Origin: Candidatus Yanofskybacteria bacterium CG10_big_fil_rev_8_21_14_0_10_36_16
GTDB lineage: Bacteria > Patescibacteriota > Minisyncoccia > 2-02-FULL-40-12 > IGHO2-01-FULL-4-A
Length of the DNA: 64,000 nucleotides
Assembly: GCA_002794035.1 (NCBI GenBank)
Contig: PCXQ01000004.1
Location: forward strand, 97,213 to 161,212
Direction of reading: 5' to 3'
Part shown: piece after piece, positions 1,457 to 28,107 of the stretch
How positions within the stretch are numbered: position 1 is the stretch's first letter
How the letters are laid out: the number at the start of each line of letters is the position of its first letter
Notes under the pieces: generated by a model
What the model saw: the letters and a program-made list of their open reading frames with translations, nothing else
The model's database searches: none
Told to the model about the DNA's origin: nothing
Position numbers and translations under genes: made by a program

Positions 1457-2533
1457 CTAAGCCTCGCTGACCACTTCTTTTGATTCTGTTTCCCCTGTTT
1501 TTTCTCCAGCTTCTAAAAGAGTCTGCGTTCTATCAGTCATCAAAGACAAACGTTTTTCTGAGTTGTCGTAAGCACTTCTGGCATCTGATAAATGCTTACC
1601 TAGTTTTTTAAAATCTTCTCCAAGTTTTCTACCATCAACCAAAACTCGATCTAAACGCTTCATAATTTCTTTTGTTTGCTTAGACATTTGAACATCCTTC
1701 AACCAGTGGCGTATTGAGGAAATTGAAAGCATAAAGGTATTAGGTGAAACCAGAATCACCCTCTTGGATTGAGCATATGCTGGAACATCAGCCTCTTTAA
1801 TATTATTCACTATCTCATAATAAACAGTCTCGGCTGGTATATACATCAATACAAAATCAGTCGTACCTTCAGAAGGACGAACATATTTTGAAGCTTCATC
1901 AATTTTTTTCTTTGCATCAGACAAAAACACCTTTCTAAAACCATCTCGGTTAATATCATTATCGGATTCAATCATTTTCTCAAAATTTTCCATAGGAAAT
2001 TTTGAATCAATCGGCAAAATAATATCATTAGGGAGTCTCAAGATGGCATCAACAGCCTCACCGTTTTTAAAATAATACTGCATTTTATATGAGTCACGGG
2101 GAAAATACTGACTCAACGCTGCCTCAAGAGATGCCTCACCCCAAATACCACGAAGCTTTGGCGCTTTAAAAATATTCTGAAATGATGCCACTGTTTTAAC
2201 AGACTCGTGAACCTGCTTTTGTGCTTCTAATATTTGGGTCAATCCTGAGGTAAACTCCTGAACCTGCTTATGAACATTCTGAGATGAACGTTCTACCGAC
2301 TCACGACTATCTTTTAACTGATCATTAACCATTTTTATGGTATTTTGAAGAGCCTGGTCTGATGATTTTTTTGATTCACTAAAATAGCTAGCCATGTCAG
2401 ATAAACGCTGATTAAGCAATTCAAAATGGCGATCAGTTTGACCGCCATTATCTTGTTTTTTCTGGCGCAAAACAAAAAACACAATTACTGCACCCGCTAA
2501 TATTCCTATTAAAATTGGTAAGACTAAGTTCAT
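1457..2533 (-). CDS. rmuC: DNA recombination protein RmuC-like (N-terminal TM, coiled coil, RmuC domain)
   Basis: N-terminal hydrophobic helix, long coiled-coil region, C-terminal motif DFVLMYIPAETVYYE resembling RmuC family. Confidence 0.65.
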   Translation of the reverse strand: MNLVLPILIGILAGAVIVFFVLRQKKQDNGGQTDRHFELLNQRLSDMASYFSESKKSSDQALQNTIKMVNDQLKDSRESVERSSQNVHKQVQEFTSGLTQILEAQKQVHESVKTVASFQNIFKAPKLRGIWGEASLEAALSQYFPRDSYKMQYYFKNGEAVDAILRLPNDIILPIDSKFPMENFEKMIESDNDINRDGFRKVFLSDAKKKIDEASKYVRPSEGTTDFVLMYIPAETVYYEIVNNIKEADVPAYAQSKRVILVSPNTFMLSISSIRHWLKDVQMSKQTKEIMKRLDRVLVDGRKLGEDFKKLGKHLSDARSAYDNSEKRLSLMTDRTQTLLEAGEKTGETESKEVVSEA

Positions 2534-2543
2534 AAATAAAAAA

Positions 2544-3497
2544 TTAATAATTTAATTGGTTCATATACAATTCAAGCGTGTGCCGCGCATTAGGTTCCAT
2601 GGGTAATTCTTGCAAGGCTATGTGTGGAGGAATCCAAATATACTCCTCCGCCTCTTCGTTTAAGCATACATTTTTACTATCAACCCCAACCACCTTATCA
2701 ATAAAAATATGCTGTATGCCTGATTTATAATATCCAGAATTTTTTATCTGATCAAAAGTGCAAATATGTTCCCCTATTTTTGATTTTAAACCAGTCTCTT
2801 CTTTTATTTCACGCACCAAAGCGTCTTCCAATCGTTCGTTCCTTCTAACCTTACCTCCAATAATTGAATACTTATCACCCCATTTATGTGTTTTTACAAG
2901 TAAAATTTCTTTTTCTTTTTTTGGTTTTGCCGGCTGATATTCTATAATACCACCAACGGCCACCACAGAACCCGGAATCATTAAATCTTCCCACAATTTA
3001 TTTATTATCCTGTCTTTTCTTTTAAAATTAGGATTCGGCAATCTCTTATGGCGCAGAATATACTCAGTTAAATTTTCCGGTTTCCACACAGAATTATTAT
3101 GAAAATATGCTGGATGATCAGTAAGAATTTCTGAAAAAAAGTGCCTAATATTTGAAACTTGAGCGATACCTAACTCATATGAAGTACTTTTACCTATATA
3201 CCCCTCGGGGTTAACAAAAAAACTAAAACCATTTTCTCCAAGACGCTTTAGATTATGCAAATAGATAAGTTCTATCATTCTTGGATCTCTTTCTTTATCT
3301 GTTTCCAAAACTGCAAATCCATTTTCAATATATTTAATTTCAGTCATTTCGGGAGCTAGAACCTCTATTCCGGCTTCTGTAAAAATTTTATAGGCTTTCT
3401 TTATTTCACTAAAATGTTTTCTAAAACTGCCATGCAGAACACATCTAAAATTTAATTTTTTGTTTTTTTCACTCATGGCTGTGTTTTTTCTAAACAA
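2544..3497 (-). CDS. Fusion protein: N-terminal nucleoside 2-deoxyribosyltransferase/DNPH1-like domain + C-terminal NUDIX hydrolase
   Basis: N-terminal GKSTSYELGIA resembles NDT/DNPH1 catalytic-Glu motif (DSGTxFExGYA); C-terminal Nudix box GGKVRRNERLEDALVREIKEETGL. Confidence 0.6.
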   Translation of the reverse strand: MFRKNTAMSEKNKKLNFRCVLHGSFRKHFSEIKKAYKIFTEAGIEVLAPEMTEIKYIENGFAVLETDKERDPRMIELIYLHNLKRLGENGFSFFVNPEGYIGKSTSYELGIAQVSNIRHFFSEILTDHPAYFHNNSVWKPENLTEYILRHKRLPNPNFKRKDRIINKLWEDLMIPGSVVAVGGIIEYQPAKPKKEKEILLVKTHKWGDKYSIIGGKVRRNERLEDALVREIKEETGLKSKIGEHICTFDQIKNSGYYKSGIQHIFIDKVVGVDSKNVCLNEEAEEYIWIPPHIALQELPMEPNARHTLELYMNQLNY

Positions 3498-4104
3498 ATT
3501 TGTCAGCTACAATTGATGCTGCATATGATTCCGGCTTAATCCTAGCCGTAAAACCATTGCCTGCCACCATGCCGACAATTTCCTGTATTAATTCTTTGGT
3601 TGGTCCATTGTGGCCAATATCTAAATGAATTTCAAATTCATACAAAAGATCTTTTAATTTATCTCTAAGTTCTGCCATTACCCTATGGGCTAAATCTATT
3701 GAATAATAGGCCTCTTTAACCATTCTATCATGTCGGTCAAAAGTATCCACAGCAGGCATTTTTTTCCAAAAAAACTTTCCTCCCTTGCCTACCCTATGTA
3801 TGGTAACAACACTAACAAAATCAGCAGTGCCCACGCCTTCTTTTTCCTTTCTTGAAACAACACCATTCCCATTTGCCAAAGATCTTAGTTTTGGCTTGCC
3901 TGACGAACTTGCACTAAGTCTAACTGAAGACCCCTTGTATTCAGAATCGGTGCCTACAACTATTGAATACTTTGCATTTGGTTCCTCTGCTATAAAACCT
4001 ATGATATCCGCCATAACTCCCAAAAACATCCTCTTACCTTTTGAAGGATTGTTAAAGTACTCATTTGAATCAATTGTCTTTTTCATCTTTATCCTCCCAT
4101 TCAT
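3490..4104 (-). CDS. DUF458/YkuK-like (predicted RNase H-like fold) protein
   Basis: VVGTDSE ... VVTIHR pattern matching YkuK/DUF458 family; overlaps downstream gene by 8 nt. Confidence 0.45.
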   Translation of the reverse strand: MNGRIKMKKTIDSNEYFNNPSKGKRMFLGVMADIIGFIAEEPNAKYSIVVGTDSEYKGSSVRLSASSSGKPKLRSLANGNGVVSRKEKEGVGTADFVSVVTIHRVGKGGKFFWKKMPAVDTFDRHDRMVKEAYYSIDLAHRVMAELRDKLKDLLYEFEIHLDIGHNGPTKELIQEIVGMVAGNGFTARIKPESYAASIVADKFV

Positions 4105-4188: not shown

Positions 4189-5292
4189 TTATTCGCGAAT
4201 AAGCTTAGGATTTGCAACAGGCAATACAAAGGAACTTTTTTCAGAAGGAACTTGATTCTTTGCAACAACTTCAACCTTCACGTTGCCCAACCCCACAGAG
4301 TCTGGCATTTGTGCATTCACTTGGTACACACCAGCAAATCCGGGCATAAGACCCGCATAAAGTACTTCGACTTTGATACCATTAACTGTCAAAACAAAAT
4401 CATTTACCGTCCTTGCTAGCGGTTCAAATGGTGCAAGGTGACCGCTTTGAACATGCGGTTCCACTTTGCCAAGGCCTGTCATTATCACTACAAAATACTC
4501 ACTTGGGTTCAAAGGATTATCATTGTTAACCAAATTCCAATCATTATCAACAACGACAGGTTTTAAACCATAACCTTCCGAATACATGAAGGTCCTTGGC
4601 GTAGTTGGCAAAGTTTGAAGCGGTGCTTCATCCACAAAATACTTAAGACCATCAGGTCCAGTAATAACAACAGAAACATACCTTACATCTAATTCATATG
4701 CCTCTAGAGGTACCAGAAAATTTATCTGATTGGGCCCAGCATAAAAAAGTCCGACATGGCCATCATCATAAAAAACCTCTACACCTGCAAGCATCTTAGG
4801 TAATATATAAGTACAACACAATGAGTCAGCAGCTTGAATTAAGTTTGAAAAATTTTCACCAAACAAACTAGCGACAGCACCCGGCGATAATGATTCGGGT
4901 TTAAACGAAACGCCACTAACCAATCCTATACCCATAAAACTTGGCATCGGAGAATTGTCAGGCCAATCCTCTAGAGGAACCGCCCTACTACTCAAATATG
5001 GCGCCCCGACTGAAATAAAAGTTGGGATTACATCAACAAAAGGTATCTGAGCAACAGCAAGCTCATCTGATAATATTCGCACTTTATCTGCGGGGATAGT
5101 CCGAGTATTATTACTCATTCGCACCCAGATTTTACCGACAGTAAATCCGCACCCATCCAACAACATCATTTGTTGAGACTCGATTTTTAAAACAGTAGCT
5201 GAAGAAAGGTCAAAAAAATTTTGAGATCCACATTTTCCATAAAGATTTGGCAGCAAGAAAAACACAAAAACCGTTGCAAGAAATATTCTCAT
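4189..5292 (-). CDS. Secreted hypothetical protein (signal peptide)
   Basis: N-terminal MRIFLATVFVFFLLPNLYG signal-like sequence; no recognisable catalytic motif. Confidence 0.45.
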   Translation of the reverse strand: MRIFLATVFVFFLLPNLYGKCGSQNFFDLSSATVLKIESQQMMLLDGCGFTVGKIWVRMSNNTRTIPADKVRILSDELAVAQIPFVDVIPTFISVGAPYLSSRAVPLEDWPDNSPMPSFMGIGLVSGVSFKPESLSPGAVASLFGENFSNLIQAADSLCCTYILPKMLAGVEVFYDDGHVGLFYAGPNQINFLVPLEAYELDVRYVSVVITGPDGLKYFVDEAPLQTLPTTPRTFMYSEGYGLKPVVVDNDWNLVNNDNPLNPSEYFVVIMTGLGKVEPHVQSGHLAPFEPLARTVNDFVLTVNGIKVEVLYAGLMPGFAGVYQVNAQMPDSVGLGNVKVEVVAKNQVPSEKSSFVLPVANPKLIRE

Positions 5293-5403: not shown

Positions 5404-5430
5404 AAAAAAAAGACCGAGCTAGTCTCGGTC
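5404..5430 (-). terminator. Rho-independent terminator (gaccgag-ctagt-ctcggtc + T-run on minus strand)
   Basis: 7-bp stem followed by 8 T on minus strand at stop of ORF 5419..5688. Confidence 0.5.
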
Positions 5431-5688
5431 ATCTGCAAGCCTTCCAGCTCTACACTCTCTTTTAATATATCTAATGCAGTGGTTTTGAAAAATCTTGGCA
5501 GATTGCACCCCTTTATTTCTACCGAGATACAAAGACATGCCGACTATATTTGCTAACTCCTCATCTACCTCATGACACCTTTCATCTCCGTTTTTTATAT
5601 ATGTATTTGCCCATTTTTTAATAGCCTTCCTTAATCTTTCTATCTCTTTACCTCTTTCATCAAAAGTCATTTCTTTGATTGGTTTCAT
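5419..5688 (-). CDS. Hypothetical small protein (89 aa)
   Basis: ORF with strong RBS AAGGAGG 5 nt upstream of ATG; no recognisable domain. Confidence 0.4.
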   Translation of the reverse strand: MKPIKEMTFDERGKEIERLRKAIKKWANTYIKNGDERCHEVDEELANIVGMSLYLGRNKGVQSAKIFQNHCIRYIKRECRAGRLADDRD

Positions 5689-5750: not shown

Positions 5751-5914
5751 TTTTATTTTTATAATTTTTTGGCACCGCCAACGGCGATTAAAGTGAGCAG
5801 TTTCACTTTAATCCTCAAATTTAGTCCCGCCTTGTGGTGAGTTTACGAAACACGGCGAGGCGCAAAAAATTTGAGCAGAACCCGCAATAGAACAAATGAC
5901 CCCACACAACTTTG

Positions 5915-5987
5915 CGCTCCCAACCGGATTTGAACCGGTGTTACTTGGATGAGAACCAAGCGTCCTAAACCACTAGACGATGGGAGC
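5915..5987 (-). tRNA. tRNA-Glu (anticodon CUC)
   Basis: Manual fold: acceptor GCTCCCA/TGGGAGC, D-arm TCGTCTAGTGGTTTAGGAC, anticodon stem CTTGG/CCAAG loop TTCTCAT, T-arm ACCGG-TTCAAAT-CCGGT, discriminator G. Confidence 0.65.
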
Positions 5988-6001
5988 AAAGCGCAAAGTT
6001 G

Positions 6002-6052
6002 TAAGGGGCAAGGAACCATGTGTCCTAGGCCACTAGACGATGGCGGCATAAA
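6002..6052 (-). other. Degenerate tRNA 5'-half-like fragment (GCCGCCA + Glu/Gln-like D-arm, no T-arm)
   Basis: GCCGCCATCGTCTAGTGGCCTAGGAC resembles 5' half of tRNA-Glu but lacks a foldable anticodon/T-arm. Confidence 0.3.
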
Positions 6053-6114
6053 AAAATTGTAAAAATCAAAAAGTGGGAGCAAGATTAATTAAACAATTTA
6101 ATTTTTAAATAACA

Positions 6115-25414: not shown

Positions 25415-26106
25415 TTATGAAATCAACAAATGAGGAATTTGCTAAAATTTTTGATGGTATAGCTTCTCACTACAATGAGATAAGCAATCCCTATATTGTA
25501 AGCATACGCAAAAACATATTTGCTAATTGGGCAGAAGGAAAATGTATTGAGGTGGGAGCAGGAACCGGAGAAATCTCCAGGTTTTTGTCGCAAAAATACA
25601 AAGTTGTGGCAACAGACATATCACCACAGATGGTAAGTGAAATCAAAAAACGTGGCATTGAAGCATACGTATGCGATGCAGAAAAGCTTCCCTTCCCTAA
25701 TGAATCATTTGATACCGTAATATCCGCGGAAGTTATTTTTTACTTGGATAATCCAGAAAAATTTATATCTGAAGCAAATAGAGTTTTAAAACCTGGCGGG
25801 CGTCTTCTTATTTCTTGTGCAAGCAATTTCCCAGGTAAATTTTATGACAAACTAAGATCGACTCTACGCAACTTAGGAATCGGGGGTATGTACTTTGATG
25901 AAGATACTCTGGGTGAATTTATGTCTGTACCAAAATTAAAAAAAATGATAGTTAAAAATAATTTTAGCATTGTTGAAATTAAAAAATCACCAGTCCTTCC
26001 TATTGCATCACTTACTCGCCTCAATAAATTACTAGAAAAAACTCTCTTGCATCATTTCGGAATATTTATTTTTACCTACGCTCAAAAACCAATTAAAGCC
26101 GAATAA
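25411..26106 (+). CDS. Class I SAM-dependent methyltransferase
   Basis: VGAGTGEIS motif I. Confidence 0.7.
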   Translation: MIMKSTNEEFAKIFDGIASHYNEISNPYIVSIRKNIFANWAEGKCIEVGAGTGEISRFLSQKYKVVATDISPQMVSEIKKRGIEAYVCDAEKLPFPNESFDTVISAEVIFYLDNPEKFISEANRVLKPGGRLLISCASNFPGKFYDKLRSTLRNLGIGGMYFDEDTLGEFMSVPKLKKMIVKNNFSIVEIKKSPVLPIASLTRLNKLLEKTLLHHFGIFIFTYAQKPIKAE

Positions 26107-26111
26107 ATTTA

Positions 26112-26152
26112 AAAATTAAAACGGCCCTCATTGAATGTGGGCCGTTTTTTAA
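26112..26152. terminator. Bidirectional rho-independent terminator (aaacggccc-loop-gggccgttttttt)
   Basis: 9-10 bp stem with A-run upstream and T-run downstream between convergent genes. Confidence 0.55.
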
Positions 26153-26207
26153 TAATATTTGCCTTTCTGTTAACTTATTAATTTATCATTATCAGTCAAA
26201 CATTTCA

Positions 26208-27830
26208 TTATATTTCATCTGCATAATCACCATGAACCCATCCCCATTCGTTGAATCCCTTTTTAATTTTGTACCAGCCATTTTCAACATCAACAAACGT
26301 GTATTCTTCTCCAGGCAAAACTTGTCCCAAAACATCATACCCCGTAGAAGAACCACTTCTTACTCTCAAATATCCTATACCCTGAACAACCCTTAGTTTA
26401 CCGCCAATTCTCATTTGGGCAAATTCTTGTCCTGATATTACCTGCACATCGGCCCAACTATATCCCGCCGCGTTAAATTCTGCTTCAGTCCTAACCCATA
26501 TCAATGTCCCGTCTTCTCCTTGAACGTAAACTTTCGGATCATTTGTTTTCCTAAAGAGCTTGGTCGGCATATCCGATGGGGCAATTTGAAGTGCTGCAAA
26601 TTCCGGTCCTGATATTACCTGCACATCTTCCCATTTGTATCCGGCGGCATTGAAATCTTCCAGCGTACTAACCCAATGAAGCACACCATCACCTTCATCT
26701 ACATAAACTTTGGGATCGGCAACTTTTCTGAACAGTTTAACTGATATTACCGGTGCAGGGGTCGGGCTTGCTGTTACTATGGGTGTCGGAGCCGGACTAA
26801 CCACAGGGGTAGGCGTTGGTGTGGGTGTTGGTGTAGCAAAAGGTGTTCCTCCCCCACCGCCAGCGCTTTTTTTAGAGGCAACAATAGTAACCGTGCTTTG
26901 TGCGTCACTGCCAGTTGTTCGGTCTGTATAGGTTCCTGTTTTAGTATCCAAATCGTAATGTGTTACAGAAGCAGTAGTCTCCGTATCAGCTATTGGAACA
27001 GCACAAAAATAATCCCCATAATTAGCACCAGTTCCAGCTGTACAGCTCGTACCTAAGCTGTCACCTGCCGTAACAATACCTGTGGAAAGATTTGTTGTAC
27101 CGCCGGATACCTGAAGAGTTACCTTAACACCAAAAGATAAGCCCGCTGTATCAATATCAGAATCCTGAGAAGAATCAAAGTCAACGCTTTGTGATGCAGT
27201 TGCTGAAATTGTTAAAGCCGCTGATGTTCCATTAATATAACCATCAGCACCTCCCGCAATAGTCCCACCACTGGTTGACCCTGCAATATATTTCTTACCT
27301 CCACTATATGACTGAGAAGCAACCGTACCACTATAAGTAGCTGAGGCAGTAGTGCCATCCAGAGTCAAGGTGTTGCCAAGTTCATCCTCGATACCATTTA
27401 CAACTATGGAGTAATCCATGCTCGCCAAAGCGCTGAACGGGTCACTGGCCGAGGCCGGAAGCGCGACTGTAAAATCTCTGGTAACCCAGCCATCAAGGGA
27501 AGCTGAACCAGTAATGGTGTCGCTAGTTCCAAAAATACAACCAGCATCGGTCATTTCCTTTGACGCGGAAGCAACCTTAATAATACCATCCGCTGCTTGA
27601 GTGCTTTCTGAGGCCGTATTGTCAGTTATTGTTCCGAGACCGCTACCACATGAAAAGTTTATGGTAACCCCGTTATCATTTAAAACATCTAGTTCTGTAT
27701 CAATTCTAAAAAACACAAACTCACCAGCATCTGCCGCATAAGTTTCTCCCGGAATTAATATTACTGCAAATAAAAAAACAACAAAAACTGCTAATAAATT
27801 AAAACTCCACCTAACTAAACTGCCTTTCAT
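26208..27830 (-). CDS. Secreted surface protein with Thr/Pro-rich linker, tandem 50-aa repeat domain and C-terminal SH3b-like domain
   Basis: Signal peptide; TPFATPTPTPTPTPVVSPAPTP linker; duplicated KLFRK..DPKVYV...FNAAGY..DVQVISG repeat; C-terminal SH3b-like segment. Confidence 0.55.
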   Translation of the reverse strand: MKGSLVRWSFNLLAVFVVFLFAVILIPGETYAADAGEFVFFRIDTELDVLNDNGVTINFSCGSGLGTITDNTASESTQAADGIIKVASASKEMTDAGCIFGTSDTITGSASLDGWVTRDFTVALPASASDPFSALASMDYSIVVNGIEDELGNTLTLDGTTASATYSGTVASQSYSGGKKYIAGSTSGGTIAGGADGYINGTSAALTISATASQSVDFDSSQDSDIDTAGLSFGVKVTLQVSGGTTNLSTGIVTAGDSLGTSCTAGTGANYGDYFCAVPIADTETTASVTHYDLDTKTGTYTDRTTGSDAQSTVTIVASKKSAGGGGGTPFATPTPTPTPTPVVSPAPTPIVTASPTPAPVISVKLFRKVADPKVYVDEGDGVLHWVSTLEDFNAAGYKWEDVQVISGPEFAALQIAPSDMPTKLFRKTNDPKVYVQGEDGTLIWVRTEAEFNAAGYSWADVQVISGQEFAQMRIGGKLRVVQGIGYLRVRSGSSTGYDVLGQVLPGEEYTFVDVENGWYKIKKGFNEWGWVHGDYADEI

Positions 27831-28107
27831 TTGATTTTATCTGATAGAGTTAAAAACAAAAAACCATTGTTTAATTGCCCCGTCCCATACCAGAGTTATT
27901 ATTGATTGTCACTACTTTTATTATACAGCAATCATAATTTTTGCCCCCCCCTACTGTTGATAACCACGATTGTTTGACCTCCCCGCAAACAGGCCAATCA
28001 TATGATCAGTGCACCAACAATACGACTTGAAACTAAAAAACAAAACGTATTGTACAAGACTTTGTGTGAAGTTGAAAAGAAATTCAGGTTTATATAGAGT
28101 AAATATA

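Follow-up and report, generated by a model that had tools for sequence, protein, structure and literature searches.

A conserved protein of Patescibacteria that joins an NDT/DNPH1-like domain to a Nudix hydrolase and may dismantle nucleotides

What does a conserved protein do that source annotations call only 'NUDIX domain-containing', 'ADP-ribose pyrophosphatase YjhB' or 'hypothetical'? This question is raised by a 310-aa protein encoded in a stretch of 64,000 nt (hereafter the window) from Candidatus Yanofskybacteria bacterium CG10_big_fil_rev_8_21_14_0_10_36_16 (contig PCXQ01000004.1, positions 97,213 to 161,212). A preliminary description of this DNA had read the protein as a fusion of a nucleoside 2-deoxyribosyltransferase (NDT)/DNPH1-like domain with a Nudix hydrolase, two activities that could convert a (d)NTP to a (d)NMP and then to base plus sugar phosphate. 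We found that both domains are present with their catalytic signatures kept, that the fusion is conserved, and that the NDT-like domain is repeatedly coupled to nucleoside triphosphate (NTP) pyrophosphatases. The proposal built on this, a bifunctional nucleotide-dismantling enzyme running from (d)NTP through (d)NMP to base plus (deoxy)ribose-5-phosphate, is one that we regard as evenly poised between right and wrong.

The gene lies on the minus strand at positions 2544..3476, from an ATG at 3476..3474 to a TAA stop at 2546..2544. The preliminary description had extended it to 3497, the end of the open reading frame (ORF; 2544..3497, minus strand), which encodes 317 aa if started at a TTG. This TTG, seven codons upstream of the ATG, would overlap the stop of the preceding gene (3490), and the ATG sits 13 nt past that stop. 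Because the TTG runs into the upstream gene, because the 310-aa product from the ATG is 100% identical to database protein P0001, and because homolog alignments begin at this ATG, we prefer it to the TTG as the likely true start.

Are the two halves truly one protein? Among 5.8 billion proteins searched, 743 relatives came up, and the best 120 of these are without exception full length (120/120 with 286-340 aa, 93-100% query cover and 65-77% identity), which rules out a gene-calling artefact and bears out the single-gene fusion that had been proposed. Full length is kept at this level of identity by more than 100 clusters (at 90% identity), drawn from many lineages of Patescibacteria and from archaeal metagenome-assembled genomes (MAGs) with a DPANN label; the named sources among the best 120 are Giovannoni-, Yanofsky-, Davies- and Spechtbacteria, Paceibacterota and 'Patescibacteria group'. 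Conservation is dense in both halves, and such identity across classes places the protein among the better-conserved ones in these fast-evolving genomes, with a single locus in each sampled contig. The phylogenetic distribution, a check that had been called for at the outset, was followed with two peptide patterns only and one genome per GTDB species, so that the resulting count is a lower bound: at least 96 loci were confirmed, in Parcubacteria (including a complete 689-kb Nealsonbacteria chromosome), Microgenomates, WWE3 and many Saccharibacteria. Additionally, full-length orthologs with 32-54% identity occur in MAGs labelled Woesearchaeota, Nanoarchaeia, Nanoarchaeota or 'archaeon' (L072, L074-L076, L078 and L086); those that the pattern scan placed under the labels Woesearchaeota, Nanoarchaeia and 'archaeon' have 48-54% identity. 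This archaeal assignment comes from the submitters' labels and one geranylgeranyl-reductase-like neighbour (L076), which weakly supports an archaeal origin, and the automatic labels of several other loci are implausible ('Gammaproteobacteria' or 'Methanosarcinales', for example). Taken with these labels, the distribution suggests that the fusion is common to the candidate phyla radiation (CPR) and DPANN. The two-domain protein is real and strongly conserved, in bacteria that live as ultra-small symbionts and in some archaea.

The C-terminal half is readily recognised. Residues ~169-310 (2547..2972, minus strand) form a Nudix hydrolase domain modelled with a high predicted local distance difference test score (pLDDT) and matched by Pfam NUDIX (PF00293, E 2.8e-14, 53.7 bits against a cut-off of 21.1). 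The canonical Nudix box expected here can be read directly at 2787..2855 (minus strand) as G208-KVRRN-E214-RLEDALV-R222-E223-I-K-E226-E227-T-G229-L230; it fits GX5EX7REUXEEXGU, and all catalytic positions are invariant in 64 orthologs. The nearest solved relatives are NudI (E 1.2e-8 over domain residues 40-141, nearly the whole domain), a pyrimidine dNTP pyrophosphohydrolase, and the CTP pyrophosphohydrolase NudG (3.5e-6), with MutT1 also close. None of the NCBIfam Nudix equivalogs for NudI, NudG, MutT and ADPRase was reached, the best being NudI with 35.8 bits against a cut-off of 95. Upstream of this domain lies a helical linker (residues ~146-168; 2973..3041, minus strand) with invariant L146-P147 and P168.

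The N-terminal half is a different matter: ~165 aa carry no annotation in any library. Its core, an NDT/DNPH1-like alpha/beta domain of residues ~8-145 (3042..3455, minus strand), has no Pfam match at E <=1 (PF05014 included), no relevant NCBIfam, PHROG or PADLOC match, and no sequence relative in the PDB by phmmer or by hmmsearch with two family profiles. PDB matches to carotenoid dioxygenase, DBF2, Rtt106 and a DinB-like protein were dropped as chance (E >0.1). An exhaustive profile search of 1.84 billion representatives gathered 798 clusters (50% identity) at E <=0.001, 288 of them at E <=1e-10, and it is through these relatives that a bridge to PF05014 appears. A PF05014 match at E <=0.01 is found in 38 of the 150 best representatives (best E-value 1.2e-6); the strongest match that we inspected reaches 28.0 bits (E 2.6e-6, profile positions 14-103 of 117), and two family members are labelled 'nucleoside 2-deoxyribosyltransferase' by JGI. 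The top match of the profile search, P0121, is a false positive, a 7,573-aa adhesin-like protein, highly repetitive and with a high content of A, D, T and N, whose score stems from 43 weak repeat matches. Pfam's gathering score of 28.8 bits was reached neither by the window protein (no match at E <=1) nor by its individually scanned relatives (<=28.0), and by Pfam's criterion the domain is not a PF05014 member.

Profile comparison and structure prediction point the same way as this bridge. After the human DNPH1 sequence had been confirmed against PDB chains and its family collected, hhalign aligned a 140-sequence domain alignment (effective number of sequences, Neff, 5.5) with the DNPH1 family at 65% probability (E 6.1e-5, residues 63-120); a narrow ortholog profile (Neff 2.2) against single DNPH1 or the vertebrate DNPH1 family gave 2-11%, in the same register. 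The predicted fold is a flavodoxin-like three-layer alpha/beta fold of the NDT type, with true transferases (6evs, 7o62, 1s2d and 1f8x) as best structural matches at a sequence identity to NDTs of 11-17%. The AlphaFold2 (AF2) model of the domain alone is better than the N-terminal half of the full-length model, in which pLDDT falls to ~30 at residues 90-129. The predicted template modelling score of the latter (pTM 0.51) means that the geometry between the domains is not reliably predicted, and we therefore make no claim of substrate channelling. The preliminary description had proposed matching the first residues against PF05014: a direct Pfam match failed to appear, and the fold and the profile-profile alignment spoke in favour of the NDT/DNPH1 superfamily. 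Nor does this look like an unrelated Rossmann-like fold devoid of the conserved Glu, and the NDT/DNPH1 resemblance first noticed in the N-terminus has gained support from the bridge, the profile alignment, the fold and the aligned Glu. As judged by these converging, indirect lines, the domain appears to be an unmodelled sister family of PF05014 within the NDT/DNPH1 superfamily that would keep the nucleophile.

Which residues, then, could form an active site? The segment GKSTSYELGIA (residues 95-105) had been singled out as the likely catalytic-Glu motif, and this has held up well. Its Y100-E101-L102-G103 (3168..3179, minus strand; Glu101 codon 3174..3176), located by hhalign and conservation, places Glu101 on Glu104 of DNPH1 (G-Y-E-L-G) in every hhalign alignment, at the position that starts the helix after strand 4, and Glu101 is found without exception (100%) in 140 diverse domain sequences whose identity is otherwise 23-35%. 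In DNPH1, Glu104 forms a covalent deoxyribose-phosphate intermediate (PMC10603095). A greedier hhalign alignment, together with column conservation, brings out a second element, the loop G16-S17-F18-R19-K20 after strand 1 (3417..3431, minus strand), with G16-S17-F18-R19 falling on DNPH1 G27-S28-I29-R30; DNPH1 R30 is shared with the CMP hydrolase MilB (R23) (PMC10603095). Across the 140 sequences S17, P42 and G95 are conserved at 99%, G16 at 96% and R19 at 70%. The column of the phosphate-binding S98 of DNPH1 holds Y93, flanked by S97 and S99, which may contact the phosphate. The remaining members of the DNPH1 triad, Tyr24 and Asp80, are not matched, their columns holding Val13 and Tyr72 in an N-terminal part of the alignment that is of low confidence; the conserved acidic positions E69 (E or Q), D60 and D120 might be candidates for an acid/base role.

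The lack of the triad Tyr and Asp at the aligned columns, along with the low model confidence around Y-E-L-G, lends itself to a reading in which only the Nudix domain is catalytic and the N-terminal half is a ligand-sensing, regulatory or oligomerisation module of NDT-like ancestry. Indeed, proteins of the NDT/DNPH1 fold exist obligately as dimers or hexamers, and such a fold could be used for assembly (PMC10603095). We consider this reading unlikely, given the complete invariance of Glu101 and the conservation of G16, S17, P42 and G95 (>=96%) in such divergent sequences; moreover, 94 of 149 members are standalone and hence need a function of their own.

What function this might be is best seen from the company that the domain keeps, and its repeated coupling to NTP pyrophosphatases is both the strongest functional evidence and the most informative result of this analysis. 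We clustered the extensions of the representatives and scanned them with Pfam and NCBIfam. Besides the standalone domains (~130-200 aa, the 94 of 149 representatives just mentioned), ~21 carry a C-terminal Nudix domain as the window protein does, two a Nudix domain in reversed, N-terminal order (P0196 and P0214), one a Nudix domain with an NrtR-type winged helix (P0256), 11 a MazG all-alpha NTP pyrophosphatase (e.g. P0244 and P0215) and one a DUF84 inosine/xanthosine triphosphatase (P0232). Nudix, MazG and DUF84 are structurally unrelated, and the activity that they share is the hydrolysis of nucleoside triphosphates. Of the standalone members that we looked up, three of four lie directly after a separate 237-aa Nudix gene (gap 8 nt, overlap 17 nt and gap 2 nt), which has only the Nudix box in common with the Nudix domain of the window protein; the two pairings are therefore independent of each other. 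Close to the fourth are NDK and a faint MazG gene.

Other partners are rarer: an ~170-aa extension that is probably a second copy of the domain (six representatives), SMEK_N (two), and SLOG/LOG (P0251), DUF4406 (P0160) and an 8xMP membrane domain (P0211) in one each. The six duplicated forms (P0148, P0159, P0161, P0182, P0201 and P0233; ~325-345 aa) have C-terminal extensions with no Pfam match, five of which give a second weak match to the NDT-like profile, and could represent NDT-like domains duplicated in tandem, as a fused pseudo-dimer. In P0171 and P0269, SMEK_N is followed by ~450 aa and the NDT-like domain, an architecture typical of conflict systems. The DUF4406 of P0160 is a second NDT-clan domain.

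The partners also help to weigh two further explanations. One places the protein in NAD/ADP-ribose metabolism, with the Nudix domain cutting ADP-ribose, NAD(H) or a related dinucleotide and the NDT/TIR-like domain acting as an NMN/NAD-type N-glycohydrolase or a ligand binder. This seems improbable: MazG and DUF84 are NTP-specific families, the nearest Nudix relatives are NudI, NudG and MutT instead of ADPRases, and through its relatives the domain connects in sequence to PF05014 and not TIR. Foldseek superpositions give a root-mean-square deviation of 4-5 A for NDT/DNPH1 against 11-15 A for TIR, and the domain does not group with TIR-domain NADases by TIR fold, by the context of the catalytic Glu or by the Pfam TIR family. 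The other explanation would make the N-terminal domain a transferase that exchanges bases on (deoxy)ribose-5-phosphate through the covalent Glu and so rebalances scavenged nucleotide pools. True transferases are after all its best structural matches, the retaining covalent-Glu mechanism is common to NDTs and DNPH1 (PMC10603095), and the aligned column lacks the Asp that in DNPH1 has been proposed to donate a proton to the departing base. We nonetheless give it a small share of the probability, as the irreversible house-cleaning partners (MazG, DUF84 and MutT-like) fit disposal better than exchange and the G-S-x-R loop resembles that of the hydrolases DNPH1 and MilB.

Dismantling of nucleotides by both domains is thus the reading that we prefer, and the two steps foreseen in the preliminary description are backed by the recurrent NTP pyrophosphatase coupling and the kept catalytic signatures. 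The MutT/NudI-like Nudix domain would split a (d)NTP, possibly a pyrimidine or non-canonical one, into (d)NMP and pyrophosphate. In the NDT-like domain Glu101 would then attack C1' of the (d)NMP and release the base, and hydrolysis of the covalent Glu101-(deoxy)ribosyl-5-phosphate intermediate would yield (deoxy)ribose-5-phosphate. The substrates, the sugar specificity, the order of the steps, hydrolysis versus transfer and the physiological role are what we infer from the domains and their partners. Patescibacteria and DPANN are mostly devoid of de novo nucleotide synthesis and rely on scavenged nucleotides. A likely role in both would be the salvage of bases and sugar phosphates or the sanitation of the nucleotide pool. 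The human enzyme DNPH1 acts downstream of an NTP pyrophosphatase, DCTPP1. DCTPP1 turns dCTP or modified dCTP into dCMP (PMC11183266), and DNPH1 cleaves hydroxymethyl-dUMP (hmdUMP) into base and deoxyribose 5-phosphate (dR5P) (PMC10603095). By analogy, the pairing of pyrophosphatase and putative N-glycosidase would mirror these human sanitising steps.

Could the genes around the locus tell us more? The neighbours named in the preliminary description were both matched by Pfam: RmuC downstream (1457..2533; PF02646, E 6e-56) and a DUF458/RNaseH_like gene upstream (3490..4104; PF04308, E 9e-41). The order DUF458 - fusion - RmuC was confined to contigs from the one organism (L007-L009), which rules out a conserved operon with these two genes. 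Elsewhere orthologs lie among ASCH, DUF3467, DUF1653, an NMNAT-like gene, three further Nudix genes and Ham1 (L001/L002), thioredoxin, DsbD and SelR (L003), RecG and a faint macro-domain gene (L005), or ribosomal proteins and a transglycosylase (L006). These contexts are so varied that we recognise neither a conserved operon nor a defence-island signature. The first of them (5400..12939 in L001/L002, another Patescibacteria genome) brings the ortholog together with three Nudix genes, a nucleotidyltransferase like NMNAT, ASCH and an ITPase of the Ham1 type, and has the look of a nucleotide island devoted to house-cleaning.

The neighbourhoods bear on a last explanation, an anti-phage defence effector that depletes nucleotides. 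A PADLOC match to the candidate family PDC-S07 (E 7.6e-9, Nudix box only), the conflict-type architectures of a few distant relatives (SMEK_N, CAP12/Pycsar TIR and SLOG) and the match of the adjoining RmuC to a DRT-associated RmuC model could all be read in this way. We hold such a function to be very improbable. The protein does not belong to a known system of PADLOC, in which it gives only the generic Nudix-box match and no conserved neighbourhood, and its N-terminal domain is matched by neither PADLOC nor PHROG. Orthologs as similar as 65-77% across CPR classes, each at a single locus per sampled contig, lie among housekeeping genes that vary from locus to locus, with no defence partner that recurs, and the adjacency to RmuC is limited to the source organism. 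Among the roles first proposed, salvage and sanitation are favoured, and depletion in defence is disfavoured.

Other features of the window deserve a brief mention. Two genes upstream of the fusion and on the same strand, an 89-aa ORF (5419..5688, minus strand) has a sub-threshold MazG-like Pfam match (E 0.004, 17.8 bits against a cut-off of 27), a mildly intriguing finding given that the NDT-like domain has MazG among its recurrent partners; no PDB relative was found for this ORF and no Pfam match was recorded in an identical contig. A 367-aa protein (4189..5292, minus strand) with a hydrophobic N-terminus, a probable signal peptide, has no Pfam match; contigs from this organism carry it, conserved, next to the same genes. 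A tRNA-Glu (anticodon CTC; 5914..5987, minus strand) separates the 89-aa ORF from a MurF-like gene, and a 79-aa ORF that overlaps it (5843..6082, minus strand) was set aside as spurious. Finally, G+C rises to 0.42 at 26001..28000, against ~0.33 in the surroundings, over a 540-aa ORF (26208..27830, minus strand); this segment has no Rfam match.

How new is all this? Both parts are known in kind: one is a Nudix hydrolase, the other an N-glycosidase fold like that of NDT/DNPH1. What is new is an N-terminal family that lies outside Pfam, NCBIfam and PHROGs and misses the DNPH1-triad Tyr and Asp at the aligned positions, its joining to Nudix across Patescibacteria and DPANN-labelled MAGs, and the wider pattern of an NTP pyrophosphatase/NDT-like module. 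In the searchable literature we found no description of the Nudix/NDT-like fusion, the NDT-like family or the pyrophosphatase pairing. Patescibacteria and DPANN make up a large share of microbial diversity, and their processing of host-derived nucleotides is only partly understood; recognising a putative DNPH1-like N-glycosidase in the N-terminal half gives a concrete, testable biochemical function to a protein labelled only Nudix or hypothetical. Additionally, the unmodelled NDT-like family, with its 798 clusters, merits its own Pfam entry, and the DCTPP1/DNPH1 steps are of current interest as cancer drug targets. In a bolder and rather doubtful version of our proposal, the fusion would be a signature enzyme common to Patescibacteria and DPANN, both radiations of ultra-small episymbionts, and an entry point not recognised before, at which one polypeptide with non-canonical acid/base residues turns scavenged (d)NTPs into free bases for salvage and (deoxy)ribose-5-phosphate as a source of carbon and energy; the module of NTP pyrophosphatase and NDT-like domain would in that case be widespread and have been assembled independently several times (Nudix, MazG and DUF84). 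The outcome is a functional prediction that is solid and open to test, for a conserved protein from an important but poorly understood group, and it is not surprising in kind.

Finally, the protein can be set beside the systems that it recalls. NudI, NudG and MutT have the same canonical Nudix box, whereas the window protein scores far below their equivalog cut-offs and bears an NDT-like domain at its N-terminus. The CMP and hydroxymethyl-CMP N-glycosidases MilB, BcmB and BlsM differ in belonging to antibiotic biosynthesis clusters and in being standalone, with no pyrophosphatase fusion. The NDT/PDT enzymes (the four structures named above) use nucleosides and move the sugar to a second base; at 11-17% identity to them, the DNPH1-like G-S-x-R loop of the window domain and its coupling to an NTP pyrophosphatase instead point to nucleotide substrates. 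With DNPH1/Rcl, the 2'-deoxynucleoside 5'-phosphate N-hydrolase of PF05014, the domain shares the alpha/beta fold class, the Glu in Y-E-L-G and, as placed by the greedier alignment, a putative G-S-x-R loop after strand 1. It differs from it in having no direct Pfam or PDB sequence match, in Val13 and Tyr72 at the places of Tyr24 and Asp80, in an extra beta-hairpin (residues 47-57), in a long C-terminal helical linker and in the Nudix fusion. The metagenomic NDT-like/MazG fusions, annotated as 'NTP pyrophosphatase (non-canonical NTP hydrolase)', have a domain of the same NDT-like family (profile E ~1e-37 to 1e-40) and likewise a C-terminal NTP pyrophosphatase, although this partner has the all-alpha MazG fold, unrelated to Nudix. 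Some of these fusions lie on Mb-sized contigs, and they are therefore not confined to ultra-small genomes.
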